Source: Eledone cirrhosa (lineage: Eukaryota). Taken from it: 64,000 nucleotides of DNA. The notes beneath the pieces were generated by a model. That model did no database searches. It had not been told where the DNA came from and saw only the letters and a program-made list of their open reading frames with translations. How positions within the stretch are numbered: position 1 is the stretch's first letter; every line of letters begins with the position of its first letter. The translations under genes were made by a program, and so were the position numbers. The DNA lies in contig OZ024742.1 in NCBI GenBank assembly GCA_964016885.1, positions 60,388,001 to 60,452,000 on the forward strand, written 5' to 3'. This document shows positions 857 to 63,864 of this stretch, piece by piece.

Positions 857-1929
857 TGGATGTAAATATAATGTATTTTGCAATACACTTTATGCTTAAT
901 TAAAAGCATTTTGAAGACCGTAAGCTATTGTTTTAAAGTAGTGACAAATTCACTCACTTCGATCTCAGCAAACAGGAGGAGATAAGCCGACATGACATGT
1001 TTCGCTTTTGTTGAAGCTTATCAAGGCCAACTACCCCGCCCGTCTGCTGAGATTAATGATGTTATATTCTTATAGAAATCTAGTAAATAATCAGGAGCTG
1101 ATTATGCAGAGCGGTTGTAGTTGGCCTTGATAAGCTTCAACAAAAGCGAAACATGTCATGTCGGCTTATCTCCTCCTGTTTGCTGAGATCGAAGTGAGTG
1201 AATTTGTCACTACTTTAAAACAATAGCTTACGGTCTTCAAAATGCTTTTAATTAAGCATAAAGTGTATTGCAAAATACATTATATTTACATCCATATATA
1301 TATTGCTATTTCAGAGCTACAATTCTAATTTTTAATTTCTGCCTGACCAACAACCGCTCTGCATAATCAGCTCCTGATTATTTACTAGATTTCTATAAGA
1401 ATATAACATCATTAATCTCAGCAGACGGGCGGGGTAGTTGGCCTTGATAAGCTTCAACAAAAGCGAAACATGTCATGTCGGCTTATCTCCTCCTGTTTGC
1501 TGAGATCGAAGTGAGTGAATTTGTCACTACTTTAAAACAATAGCTTACGGTCTTCAAAATGCTTTTAATTAAGCATAAAGTGTATTGCAAAATACATTAT
1601 ATTTACATCCATATATATATTGCTATTTCAGAGCTACAATTCTAATTTTTAATTTCTGCCTGACCAACAACCGCTCTGCATAATCAGCTCCTGATTATTT
1701 ACTAGATTTCTATAAGAATATAACATCATTAATCTCAGCAGACGGGCGGGGTAGTTGGCCTTGATAAGCTTCAACAAAAGCGAAACATGTCATGTCGGCT
1801 TATCTCCTCCTGTTTGCTGAGATCGAAGTGAGTGAATTTGTCACTACTTTAAAACAATAGCTTACGGTCTTCAAAATGCTTTTAATTAAGCATAAAGTGT
1901 ATTGCAAAATACATTATATTTACATCCAT
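857..1929. mobile_element. Retrozyme-like HHR repeat: one inverted partial copy (857-1117) plus ~2.55 tandem 317-bp copies (1118-1929), inserted in (TA)n
   Basis: Identical blocks at 1123, 1440 and 1757 (period 317). 857-1117 is their reverse complement. Both ends run tttacatcc into (TA)n. Confidence 0.92.
1123..1166 (+). ncRNA. Type I hammerhead ribozyme, U3/A8 core variant (also 1440-1483, 1757-1800, and 985-1028 on -)
   Basis: ggcc-TTGATAA-gctt caaca aagc-GAA-acat gtc atgt-C-ggct: stems I, II and III pair; GUC triplet. Confidence 0.85.
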
Positions 1930-2004
1930 ATATATATATATATATATATATATATATATATATATATATATATATATATATATATATATGTGTGTGTGTG
2001 TGTG

Positions 2005-2940
2005 TGAACTTCGTATAGCTAAAGATATACAGTATGTTTGATAAATAGATATTTTTAAAGTCTAGCTATTAATATTGAAAGGCTGACGCCTAGCGCCGTC
2101 TAGCGGATTCCAGCATGAGCAGCGGGAGACAACCGACTATGTACATTTGAAACTCTGGCTATCATCAGAACAGTACTCCACTTGCTTTCTGCTCTAACTT
2201 GAAATAGGGGACATTATAGAGTGGTTCGCCCGTCTACATGTACTGATTAGTCTCATTTGCATATGGAATTGCGTAATTGGCTCAACTAGTAGAATTAAAA
2301 GGTGTTCGCTCCGATATAGCTGTATACATGTGTATTTGTATAGCTAGCGTTATACTCCATGTTTACGAATAAATATTTGAAGGCTTTTAGGTATGAATTT
2401 TGGAAGCAGATGACTAGATCCATCAGGCGGTTTCCAGCGGAAACAGGGGCGCGTAATCTGTCGACAGTCGACTGTTATCAAAACAGCGCTCCCGCTCTCG
2501 ACCCTCTGCTGGAAGTCAACATAGGCGTAAACCTACAGTTTGATGCCTATATACATAGACTGATAACCCTCTCATTTGTATATGGAGCTGTCAGCATGAA
2601 AATTGAATTAAGGCGCCCACCCCGACATCACTGTAACCATATAGATGTGTGTATTCATACATCTAGCGATATACGGTATGTTTATGAATAAACATTGAAA
2701 GCCTTCAGCTATGAATTTTGCAAAATTATATATTTGCGCATATATTGAATTGCAGCAGAGCGCAAGGAGGGACAGCGCCGTCTTGATAACGACCGGAGCC
2801 AGAAACAGTAGACAAATTACCCGCTCCTGCCTCTGTTGGAATTCACCTTATGGCCCTAGTCATCAGCTTCCAAAATTCATAGCCTAAGGCTTTCAAATGT
2901 TTATTCTTAAACACACCGTATATCGTAAGATATACAAACA
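2005..2940. repeat. Old ~325-bp unit in ~2.2 tandem copies plus one inverted copy (~2760-2940); related copy at 47720-47962 (-)
   Basis: Recurrent gatatac.gtatgttt..gaataaa..tttgaa.g.cttt.g.tatgaattttgg at ~2010, ~2338 and ~2658, and reverse complement at 2843-2938. Confidence 0.7.
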
Positions 2941-4588
2941 CACATACACGCACCAGCACACTCACACACACACACACACATACACACACACACACACACA
3001 CACACACACACACACACACACACACACACACACACACACACACACACACACACACACGCGCGCGCACACACACACACACACACACACACACATGCACACA
3101 CACACACACACATACATACACACACACATATATATATTCCACTTAATTTTCTCAATAATCGTGAGCAAGTTTCGTTCAGTGTAGTTAGTGTATCTTCGCA
3201 CTTTTCTCTTCGTTTCTATCGATCTTCGTTTTCCGTTTTTTGAAAGCATAATGAACAAACGTGACACACGGGACATTCTCAATGATTAGTAATCCACGGC
3301 TCAGTCACTAAAATATGTTAATCCAATAATCTGTTCTATTAACTCCATTTGCTTGGCATGCCGTTTTTGAAGTTAAACATTTCTATTTTATCTTATTACT
3401 TTTTATTTTTGCTTCTTGTTTGCTTTCGCCTTGTGCAAAAATACGACACTGCATCACTAAGTTGGTTATTGTTAGATTTGCGTTTGATTTTTTTTTTTAT
3501 ATAACTAATTTGATCCGTTATTCGTTAAGTATTCATTGACACCCGAAGATCAATAGCGAGCTAGGTTAAAATCTTTCTCACTTGGGATCTTGAGATCCAT
3601 TAGTGAATATCAGTGAAGAATTGATCGCCGAAGTAATATGAATATGTTTTAGGCATGGGCAACGATAAATTCGATATATTTATTTATCATTGTTTAAACT
3701 GAAATTTGAAACTTTACCGCAGCAAGTCTCAAGTAATTTTGATTGTATTTTCCGCATGACTTTTATATTGTCTTCGTTCTTCATAAGCTGTGAATTGGAG
3801 TGATGATTAAAAGCCTCAGGAAGTATTCATGCATTCTGATTTAAAATTCCTCGGTTTTCAACATAGCATTTCATGTTTTGGGATCGATAAATAAAGTCCC
3901 AGTCCAGACGGTGTAGTATTAACATAATTGATAAAATTTGGGACGGAAAACTTTACCGTACCTATTCTGGTTCTGATTCCTTAGAATGGCCTGCCGATCG
4001 GCTCCATTATTATATATATATATATATATATTTTTGAGGCGTTGGGGGAATGTTAGCTCGCGCTAAATCATTACATCAACATACCCTATTCATACATAAT
4101 GGGATTTACCTGATATACACACTATTTCAGAGATATATTTTGCAGCAGAGGCAGAATGTTTGATAATGAAAAGAAGTGACAAAATATTTTGATATATTAG
4201 TGATAGAAAAGATAATTGAAAAATATAATTCTACAAGACGTAACTAAGAAAAAGATTTATGAGTATCCCTCGCTATGTTAAAAAGAAAAGTATAACGAGG
4301 TAAATATGGATACTAAGTTAACAATGACATAAATTATGAATATGCAACGTAATCAAAAATAAATATGTGTGTATGTATGATGTATATATATATATACATA
4401 TATACATATATACATAGACACACATATATATATATATATATATATATATATATATATATATATCCACAGACACACACACACACACATATATATATATATA
4501 TATATATATATATATATATATATATATAGGTTTCCGTAGTCGTTATAGTGACGTACGGTCCAAGGCATTATTGCAATATTATATAACC

Positions 4589-5360
4589 AACTAGCAGAAT
4601 GGCCCGGCGTTGCTCGGGATTTGCTATAGGGTTCTTATATATTGATATATATTTATACTTATCGAACCTCGTGAAATAAATACGTTTGTTTATATTTTGT
4701 TATTGTGTATACAAAAATATATATCCATAAATATATAATTATATATATATATATATTAAAATAACAGACTAAAGTTTAAGCAAATAATCACTGCTTTCAC
4801 CCTTAACGGGTTATTCTACATAAAAGCAGTATGAAGTACATACACTAAGACTAATTGATGTAATATTTGGCCTTGTTTGTTTATATTTTGTTTTTGTGTG
4901 TGCAAAAATATCTGTACACGAATATCTATATTAAAATAACATATTAAAGTTTAAGCAAAGAAACGCTGCTTTCAACCTTAACGGGATCTTCTTAAACTAA
5001 CAAAATCAAACCTGAACACAGGAAGACAATACTTTAGTTCGTGAAGACGATCCCTGGCATAAGAATATATACACACATACACACTGAACGCGTCATAATG
5101 ACGTAATGCAGACAGTCAGGCATACAGACAGATATTATGAAGGCGCGACGTCATATCTATGTATCTATCTAAAAAGAGAAAGAGATCGCTAAATCGCCTT
5201 ATGCGGTCCCTAGGGCATTGAAAATTTGAAATTGTTTTTGCTTAAAACACTTCCGGGGTCATAGGAGTTACATGTATAAAGTTTGAAAAAAACCGGTTGG
5301 GTACTTCTCGAGATTTAGGGAAACAGACACACAGACATCCTCTGTTTTATATATATAGAT
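4589..5360 (+). mobile_element. Non-autonomous Helentron/HINE (Lep1-like) element
   Basis: 5' actagcagaatggcccggcgttgctcggg hairpin; 3' acagacacacagacatcctctgttttatatatatagat. These termini are typical of this class. Confidence 0.65.
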
Positions 5361-62775: not shown

Positions 62776-63327
62776 GATAGATAAAATAAATCAAAGAACG
62801 CCTACATACTTATACAATTTTTATTCGCTAACAATGTTTCATCCATACCGTGGGGCAGGAATCCTCAGAGCGTAAACAATAAAAATATAATGCTGAATAT
62901 AAGCTCTACCAAGCTTAGTCACCAGAAGACTACAGAAACAGTAGAGGATAGCATGAGGGAGATTGGATATGAGAATGATGGAGAGAATGCATACTGGGTA
63001 TATTAGCCATACCCAGTACGCATTCTCTCCATCATTCTCATATCCAATCTGCCTCATGCTATCCTCTACTGTTTCTCTACTGTTCTTGTGACTAAGCTTG
63101 GTAGAGCTTATATTCAGCATTATATTTTTATTGTTTACGCTCTGAGGAATCCTGCCCCACGGTATGGATGAAACACTGTTAGCGAATAAAAATTGTATAA
63201 GTATGCAGGTGTTCTTTGATTATTTTTCTCTATAACGGCTCTGTTTCGTACATTGAGCTAATACGATATTGCAACAAATATGACACTGTGCAGATGTGCT
63301 TATGCACATATGATCCGTTGTCTACGT
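62776..63327. mobile_element. Fold-back with canonical HHRs (62826-62872 -, 63138-63184 +)
   Basis: ~215-bp arms around 63005; cgct-CTGAGGA-atcc tgcc ccac ggta t ggat-GAAA-cactg-TT-agcg. Confidence 0.9.
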
Positions 63328-63487
63328 ATATATATATATATATGTGTGTGTGTGTATATGTATGTATGTGTGTGTGTGTGTGTGTGTGTGTGTGTGTGTG
63401 TGTGTATGTGTGTGTGTGTGTGTGTGTGTGTGTGTGTGTGTGTGTGTGTGTGTGTGTGTGTGTGTGTGCGTGTGTGTGTGTGTGTGT

Positions 63488-63695
63488 GTAATAAACAACA
63501 CAATGTAATTATTCCATTACCCAAGGTTTCACGAAATCAGACGATTCTAGCAAAGGCGTCTTAGAATCGTCTGACTTCTTGAAACCTTGGGTAATAGAGT
63601 AATTATATTGTGTTTTTTTATTACATAATGAAATAGCTCTGTACTATACATAGCGCACTCTTGTTTCCTTTACCTTTTCCAGGGAAATATTTAAC
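63488..63695. mobile_element. Short fold-back joined within HHR stem II, family of 10643-10995
   Basis: Arms 63488-63560 / 63571-63625; cgtctg..gaaaccttgggtaat..taattatatt and tail aaatagc.ctgt.ctatacatag shared. Confidence 0.8.
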
Positions 63696-63825
63696 ATATA
63701 TATATATATATATATATATATATATATATATATATATATATAATGAAAAATTGAACAGGGACAGAACAGAGAGGCAGTACGATAAATGTTTATTAAATTC
63801 ACGCTCAGGAGAGTGGGGGGTAGGT

Positions 63826-63864
63826 GGGGGACGACGTTTCGGGCATAAGCCCTTCTTCAGGTGA
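63826..63864 (-). ncRNA. HHR-like core at the 3' end of a PLE-like element running off the window
   Basis: CTGAAGA-a-gggc ttat gccc-GAAA-cgtcg-TC; stem I does not pair locally; ~85 bp from (TA)n. Confidence 0.7.

Follow-up and report, generated by a model that had tools for sequence, protein, structure and literature searches.

The 64,000-nt stretch of Eledone cirrhosa DNA analyzed here (GenBank assembly GCA_964016885.1, contig OZ024742.1, positions 60,388,001 to 60,452,000; hereafter the window) carries numerous mirror-image insertions, most of which adjoin runs of TA dinucleotides, (TA)n. We interpret them as head-to-head insertions of Penelope-like elements (PLEs) in which, as we think probable, both cut strands of a TA run were primed at two fixed sites of the same RNA, while the shortest products, the stubs, ran off the capped 5' end of that RNA. 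The two ends of a unit are distinguished by a tail of 35-130 nt, which was overlooked in the original prediction, made from the sequence of the window alone, where the units were described as fold-back retroelements with the RNA's 3' end facing outward on both sides. Below, A denotes the tail-less priming site and B a site 35-130 nt downstream, the A-B interval being the tail; L-numbers are relative loci elsewhere in the genome, and units of the window are named by position (Table 1).

Self-BLAST recovered inverted arms at 17/17 of the positions originally listed, and the measured sizes, 181 bp to 7.36 kb, agree with the claimed span of 0.19-7.3 kb. A stricter scan of the window for inverted pairs, with microsatellites masked first, gave 21 pairs, some of them redundant or formed by short interspersed elements (SINEs). 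Fifteen of the 21 have one end no more than 15 nt from (TA)4+, against a background of 3.9% of unmasked positions. The placement claimed for nearly all units fails for 29330, which lies between (TG)n and (TC)n, and for the right end of 62776, where there is no TA run. In the four units with an open reading frame (ORF), namely 6850, 33660, 36042 and 49908, its polarity is as first described (4/4). TA-adjacent units number 234 per Mb in the window, 70 per Mb in 200 kb of neighbouring sequence and 85 per Mb across 13 further stretches of 10 kb. Such units are present elsewhere too, and their density in the window is roughly 3-fold higher than average. The palindromes are not assembly artefacts, because the identical cluster of junctions recurs in short-read contigs of public runs and because family F arms differ from each other at 39/2,410 positions (1.6%). 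The observation of mirror-image insertions is confirmed as real and extends beyond the window.

Most units join a tail-less end to a tailed end

The pairing of ends was analyzed mainly in family F, to which 9575, 14531, 33660 and 60312 belong. Genome-wide, its tail-less end (site A followed by TA) was counted 19,037 times, site A continuing into the tail 19,070 times, and the tip of the tail, with a longer exact pattern, 16,327 times. End-pair types were judged from these single-end counts together with a sample of 90 copies. It was drawn from the list of tail-less ends on contig C1, of whose first 100 entries four covered by other loci and the last six were left out. In 85/90 the tail-less end faces a tail (including two with an interrupted tail and two settled via L112 and L113), none lies opposite a second end of its own kind, and the other five are solitary or ambiguous. 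From the other side, one of 30 tail-anchored family F loci (L039) has two tails. Mixed ends were likewise found at 11/13 resolved loci of the 10643 family and 7/7 of the 16737 family, with some insertions counted from both ends. The expectation that fold-back is the default product is borne out by the 85/90 head-to-head copies of family F.

Both outer ends lie downstream of the cut site of a hammerhead ribozyme (HHR), and in L113, an intact relative of family F, they continue straight into the ORF. Since A and B are downstream of the cut and B runs into the ORF, the two sites are placed near the start of the unit transcript; the outer ends are internal priming sites and not the RNA 3' end. Two further parts of the original prediction have to be given up: priming on UA-rich 3' regions, as only a few nucleotides match TA (TAT at both family F sites), and the symmetric model built on the self-complementarity of (TA)n, as the two ends are fixed and different. 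Two-sided priming in general stands, both ends being separately RNA-templated in view of arms with mutually exclusive sequence.

Central junctions, coupled arms and the stop point of stubs

It appears hardly credible to us that the palindromes are miniature inverted-repeat transposable elements (MITEs, here TA-targeting DNA transposons) or assembly artefacts, even though they look like MITEs and a search with the 60312 stub as DNA query returned many identical centres. The latter is a bias of the query, which was replaced by samples anchored on one end. In these unbiased samples 75 short family F copies show 71 types of central junction (38 with microhomology, 25 with filler and 12 blunt, the automatic calls overrunning by a few bases in some rows), and because the junctions differ from copy to copy there is no DNA-level MITE copying. 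Symmetric terminal inverted repeats and a fixed, shared interior were not found; the ends are asymmetric and the arms are ends of elements encoding a reverse transcriptase (RT) and a GIY-YIG endonuclease. With the junctions in short-read contigs, these data refute the MITE or artefact reading for families F, G, 10643 and 16737. In two family F stubs, L088 and L263, the central junction contains 15 untemplated A or T in a row, which suggests that the RT or a repair process added bases terminally.

The lengths of the two arms are coupled. With a cut at 65 nt and classification by hand (L274 treated as alignment overrun), family F gave 8 long/long, 1 mixed and 76 short/short pairs, where about 15 mixed pairs are expected if the arms are independent (Fisher p=1.9e-10), and subfamily variants are nearly always common to both arms. 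One RNA serving both ends best accounts for the coupling and the common variants. Two RNAs of the same class, held by a protein dimer and used one at A and one at B, are a possible substitute that we hold to be unlikely: the anole protein is predicted as a dimer (PMC11167929), the arms of L097 and L105 differ at subfamily sites and strand displacement would not be needed, but the single mixed pair against about 15 expected calls for an extra rule securing the same site class, and discordant arms are rare and partly due to CpG changes.

Self-priming, in which a single cDNA (or antisense template) forms a fold-back and is extended on its own sequence, is the published proposal for head-to-head junction palindromes of rotifer PLEs (Arkhipova et al. 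2013, PMC3846280, in the part of that paper bearing on it). Short snap-back-like filler in some centres (L243) and the subfamily match between arms would fit it. A self-copy, however, cannot exceed its template, and in 33660, L040, L045, L098, L110, L271 and L286 each arm has sequence absent from the other or the arms have zero overlap (the latter in L040, L045 and L098); arms with mutually exclusive sequence were not made by self-copying, and an extra base on both arms in L224, L236 and L244 also speaks against it. Self-priming is contradicted as the general route and very improbable as the explanation, although it may add filler at the centre.

Short family F stubs have a median length of 189 (~190 bp), and of their 150 short arms 104 end 50-62 nt upstream of A, 3 at 63-79 nt and 42 earlier. 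An initiator-like motif has its A at position 58, some 29 nt past a TATA-like box, as judged by the general promoter consensus, and by eye the stops of the 10643 and 16737 families also fall about 29 nt after TATA-like boxes (the hot spots of 10643, 16737 and 46936 are all read by eye). Short-read contigs contain the same arm-stop cluster as the genome copies, at window 35471-35486, and in them the tail plus the last 60 nt is tens of times deeper than the body; the best of these runs may derive from the very sample that was assembled.

Family G (6850 and 43458 in the window) allows a closer look at the stop, with 34,157 arm ends genome-wide. Its exact pattern breaks 2,258 times before the initiator-like A, 810 times one base later and 694 times one base earlier. 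The base preceding the break is G in 52/100 cases, compared with 18/100 and 20/100 at the neighbouring positions (p=1e-8; first 100 listed per position, counted by eye). Inspection of 30 loci yielded 28 junctions, 21 of them with G, about four of which are explainable by the partner arm and about 17 are not, and in L224, L236 and L244 it is this family that has the extra base on both arms. An extra G in 4/6 cases of the 10643 family read by eye is suggestive. In L1 such an extra G, at junctions reaching the mRNA start, marks copying of the cap (PMC11702581, as far as its relevant part goes). We consider it likely that the short stubs end at the capped 5' start of the RNA, the start sites being predicted from genomic sequence rather than from RNA 5' ends.

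Alternatively, under the same two-sided priming, stubs could end where the RT stalls at the ribozyme structure or at a bound protein. In F, G, 46936, 29330 and 12446 the hot spots do overlap or adjoin the HHR, but their position relative to it varies, from loop II (F) to the start of stem I (G) and about 10 nt upstream of the core (10643), and a stop is present in 16737, where no HHR is recognisable. The stops also fall on initiator-like motifs, and stalling would not predict the extra G at a single base; we find it improbable.

The sequence of events that we favor, double priming on one RNA with run-off at the cap, would be as follows. The GIY-YIG nuclease of the element would nick both strands of (TA)n, and one 3' end would prime at A and the other at B through a few bases of TA match, giving the observed pattern of ends. 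Both cDNAs would then grow in the direction of the RNA 5' end, with displacement of the A copy by the B copy. Where the A/B pair lies just after the transcription start, run-off would follow after 50-60 nt, the cap at times being copied as an extra base; if the A/B pair used lies further downstream, in RNA that is circular or results from read-through, the arms would be long and contain untranslated region (UTR), ORF or partial tandems. The pattern of lengths is observed and this cause of it is conjectural. The cDNA ends are finally joined bluntly, by microhomology or with filler, and a new centre arises each time.

Several observations weigh against this reading. Two tail-less ends occur in 857 and L207 and two tailed ends in L039, and five of the 90 sampled copies lack a clear partner arm; in addition, the copies sampled lie at the start of contig C1, and the exact end matches required of them favor young copies. 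Units 33660 (outside the coupling sample) and L285 combine a long arm with a very short one, the arms of L097 and L105 are discordant in subfamily, and Anolis Poseidon in vitro shows no difference in start site between strands (PMC11167929). With respect to the cap, 42/150 short arms fall short of 50 nt. No TATA is present at -30 in family G, and many arms of this family run beyond the hot spot (18/58 reach at least 120 nt). The extra G is weak in family F, its signal being blurred by filler, by microhomology and by a subfamily C, and several arms of the 12446 family stop at the HHR core, as stalling at structure would have it.

Element families, ribozymes and other features of the window

L113 encodes a single ORF of 719 amino acids with an RT (YRDD core) plus, at its C terminus, a GIY-YIG endonuclease (YIG motif), and reads in order TA run, inverted tailed arm, partial tandem, tail, ORF, UTR, HHR, tail-less end, TA run. 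Its ORF contains LRWRT, SDKTG, CNCPDRSIC (CxCX5C), CNLC (CxxC) and CKH (CxH); it matched no Pfam family, while its Atlas neighbours at 0.96-0.99 have GIY-YIG or RVT_1 in some members, and the Pfam GIY-YIG matches of the window ORFs at 50585 and 60315 are weak. The family G linker is CNCRNRVVC (the RW/DKT region was not seen for G), and 36042 has LRWRA and CNCRNELNC. RWK-like and DKT motifs and CxCX5C, CxxC and CxH without CCHH are those of the Hydra clade of RT-GIY-YIG PLEs, to which families F and G and 36042 are assigned by motif. The partial tandem or pseudo-long terminal repeat (pLTR), the inverted 5'-truncated copy and the tail at one end occur together in L113 and 36042, and in 85/90 copies of family F. 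A relative of 16737, L170, has a Neptune-type ORF with linker CDRPNCGIC and CSGC, and by these linker motifs the 16737 family is assigned to the Neptune clade, which is characterised by a C-terminal GIY-YIG with a CX2-5CxxC linker and CCHH; Naiad was ruled out by the domain order. In the 49908 family the GIY-YIG ORF belongs to a different type. Judged from these ORFs, at least two or three PLE clades produce the same layout, and the PLE origin first proposed for the palindromes is supported by the intact L113 ORF and by arms that are ends of RT-GIY-YIG elements. The 857 unit, with 2.6 copies of a 317-bp monomer and a type I HHR in each, has the tandem structure of non-LTR retrozymes. A ~310-bp tandem array akin to this monomer, apparently >10 kb and resembling a retrozyme-like satellite, was seen at L068-L070 (G000:C3, about 60.53-60.55 Mb).

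Every HHR that can be placed in an arm reads toward the flank, in agreement with the outward, non-random polarity originally described. A strict HHR descriptor gave 18 matches at a score of at least 10 (1-8 in each of 10 Markov shuffles) and 10 at a score of at least 12 (0-3), and about 35-40 motifs are counted by eye when half-motifs are included, so that the earlier figure of about 30 was fair. An Rfam scan at E<=1 returned five weak HH9 matches, the rest being mostly false miRNA matches to repeats. The claim of an HHR, whole or partial, in each arm holds by sequence for most families and breaks down in 16737 (none recognisable), in 5812 and 49908 (non-canonical core), in 29330 (no stem I) and in the left arm of 33660, which extends just 17 nt past the priming site. 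A type I HHR within the pLTR fits most families, with cleavage as a prediction, and some HHRs of the window have the U3-A8 core variant. The core is of U4A type throughout family G (window 6874-6915), where the predicted transcript would start at stem I. Outside the listed palindromes HHR motifs were seen at 17233-17335 (+; stem II region of 84 nt), 19199-19253 (+), 131-161 (-) and 47799-47836 (+), which are probably single PLE ends.

Table 1 Units and element remnants in the window.
Feature	Position	Strand	Description
857 unit, ORF-less	858..1927		Inverted arm 858-1118 plus 2.6 tandem copies of 317-bp HHR-bearing monomer; four HHRs with U3-A8 core; retrozyme-like; both outer ends tail-less (exception), relatives L014 and L288 with one tailed end
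5812 palindrome, ORF-less, 49908 family	5813..6583		Tail left, ~50 nt; HHR-like stems, non-canonical core
6850 unit, family G (Hydra type)	6846..9365		Tail-less end 6846; inverted arm 8398-9277; tail 9278-9365; HHR core of U4A type
6850 endonuclease ORF remnant	7906-8436	minus	CxCX5C, CxxC
9575 stub, family F	9576..9765		Tail 9576-9653; half HHR per arm; arms end 50 and 59 nt upstream of tail-less priming site
10643 palindrome, ORF-less	10643..11003		Canonical type I HHR outward; tail 10936-11003; 63487 in same family
11028 palindrome, ORF-less	11029..11425		Outward HHR core in each arm; tail right
12446 palindrome, ORF-less	12446..12934		HHR per arm; tail 12446-12500
14531 solitary family F tail	14532..14609	-	Between TA runs; probably a single priming event stopped at second site
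16737 stub, Neptune-type PLE	16738..17152		Tail 16738-16772; no recognisable HHR; centre at initiator-like site
28597 palindromic unit	28598..29251		Left arm with full HHR (28673-28742, minus), right arm with half; tail right
29330 stub	29331..29511		Tail left; HHR core without stem I; flanks (TG)n/(TC)n, (TA)n in relatives
33660 unit, family F	33661..35542	+	Inverted tail + 17 nt (33661-33757); endonuclease ORF remnant 33752-34315, 3' UTR, HHR (U3-A8 core), TATA/initiator-like site near 35476; tail-less far end
36042 unit, Hydra-type PLE	36042..43397		Inverted arm long and tailed, with two SINE-like inserts; partial tandem; three outward HHRs
36042 decayed RT-endonuclease ORF	39803-41875	plus
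43458 unit, family G	43458..45108	-	Single tailed arm and endonuclease remnant; no inverted partner seen (exception)
46936 palindrome	46936..47494		Long-stem-II HHR per arm; tail 46936-47064; centre where HHR stem I begins
49908 unit, PLE	49915..51821		GIY-YIG ORF remnant 50585-51580 minus; tail-less left end, tailed inverted right arm
Unit outside the original list	55460..56202		Inverted tail and partial tandem; canonical HHR 55936-55966; no TA run here
60312 stub, family F	60313..60496		185 bp; both arms end at 52 nt; blunt centre
62776 palindrome	62777..63233		Outward HHR per arm; tail not identified
63487 stub, 10643 family (older member)	63487..63695		Half HHR per arm; tail right

For 14531 a stub with an excised hairpin was considered and is unneeded, as solitary tail pieces of other lengths exist at L049-L052. 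The 62776 palindrome has no second copy among 1.27 Mb of loci. Separate PLE endonuclease remnants lie by TA runs at 14002-14477 (-), 17858-18196 (+) and 60522-61028 (+), two of Hydra and one of Neptune type, and the elements nest within each other's TA flanks. A ~200-bp interspersed repeat, which we take to be SINE-like, occurs at 21230-21431, 27689, 30202, 36537-36724, 36812-36975, 48914-49135, 53559 and 58196-58587, two copies standing in opposite orientations within the left arm of 36042. An old inverted repeat at 2328-2945 (about 70% identity, ends without HHR or TA run) could be a true MITE, a weak Pfam Transposase_1 (mariner-type) match (E=2e-4) lies at 284-589 (+), and a 360-bp direct duplication of 97% identity at 51851-52848 adjoins the 49908 element.

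Implications and comparison with known systems

The origin of the inverted repeats and tails of PLEs is named as an open problem by Craig et al. (2021, PMC8557442), in the part of that paper concerned with it. Three rules emerge from the counts presented above: the two ends of a unit are of different kinds, arm lengths are coupled, and stubs stop at the likely capped start. They can be tested in the in vitro system already established, and an intact ORF and young copies that are nearly identical are available. Palindromes that look like MITEs and lie in TA runs may have to be annotated as retro-insertions. At 70-85 units per Mb, a rough estimate from 330 kb gives roughly 2 x 10^5 units in this genome of 3.0 Gb. 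Exceptionally high double-stranded RNA (dsRNA) potential and hyper-editing are reported for octopus in the relevant part of PMC5625713, and the stub hairpins are candidates for their source. Taking all of this together we lean, with reserve, toward a more general statement: asymmetric double priming on one mRNA, with each fixed site serving one target strand, may be obligatory, tail, inverted pLTR and partial tandem may come from one reaction, and a ~190-bp hairpin, the capped 5' leader copied twice, may be its commonest product, so that MITE-mimicking hairpins of the order of 10^5 would mark transcription starts to the base and could be a main source of perfect dsRNA in the host.

The layout itself is not mostly new, since the inverted copy, the tail, the HHR and the (TA)n preference are already published. 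What is apparently unpublished is the end pairing, the arm coupling and the cap signature; the literature searched contained no statement, with regard to PLEs, of an end-pairing rule, of double priming or of run-off at the cap, a result on which the supplements of PMC8557442 and PMC11167929 may bear. The closest relatives are the Hydra-clade PLEs, which according to the pertinent part of Craig et al. (2021, PMC8557442) carry an HHR, insert into (TA)n and have a tail at one end as well as a 5'-truncated copy in inverted orientation. They share with our elements RW[K/R], DKT, CxCX5C, CxxC and CxH, the lack of CCHH and a size of about 3 kb. The tails there are 30-40 nt and not 35-130 nt as here, where some HHR cores are also variant, and that part of the paper gives no end-pairing rule and does not name ORF-less stubs as the main product.

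In vitro, the Poseidon PLE of Anolis cuts both strands of AT-rich DNA and extends them (Frangieh et al. 2024, PMC11167929). As in our units, two internal start sites downstream of the HHR bound the tail, uncleaved RNA being used there; the inverted structure was not derived from the two sites, and here the sites match TA over a few nucleotides. In Adineta vaga, Penelope elements with inverted pLTRs are most frequently head-to-head, and together with D. virilis Penelope, whose transcription starts inside its repeat (PMC2377424), they resemble our units in having a tail on one inverted repeat and promoter motifs in the pLTR (PMC3846280, PMC2377424). The explanation offered in the pertinent parts of these papers is self-priming on an antisense template, unlike ours, and target-site duplications are visible there while (TA)n hides them here.

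Non-LTR retrozymes and minimal HHRs (relevant parts of PMC4209133, PMC7229834 and bioRxiv 10.64898/2026.07.22.740005) likewise have the type I HHR, the U3-A8 variant, known from Schistosoma PLEs, and tandem ~300-nt monomers as in 857, and Schistosoma has pairs of HHRs on opposite strands 100-700 bp apart. Most stubs here differ from retrozymes in carrying half a ribozyme, and are probably dead-end products rather than a replicating non-autonomous family. Finally, in twin priming of L1, as set out in the part of PMC11702581 that deals with it, both ends of the break also prime on one RNA and an extra G is found at junctions reaching the mRNA start. The second site of L1 is variable and the two pieces barely overlap, whereas in the units described here both sites are fixed and the overlap of the two copies yields a palindrome.

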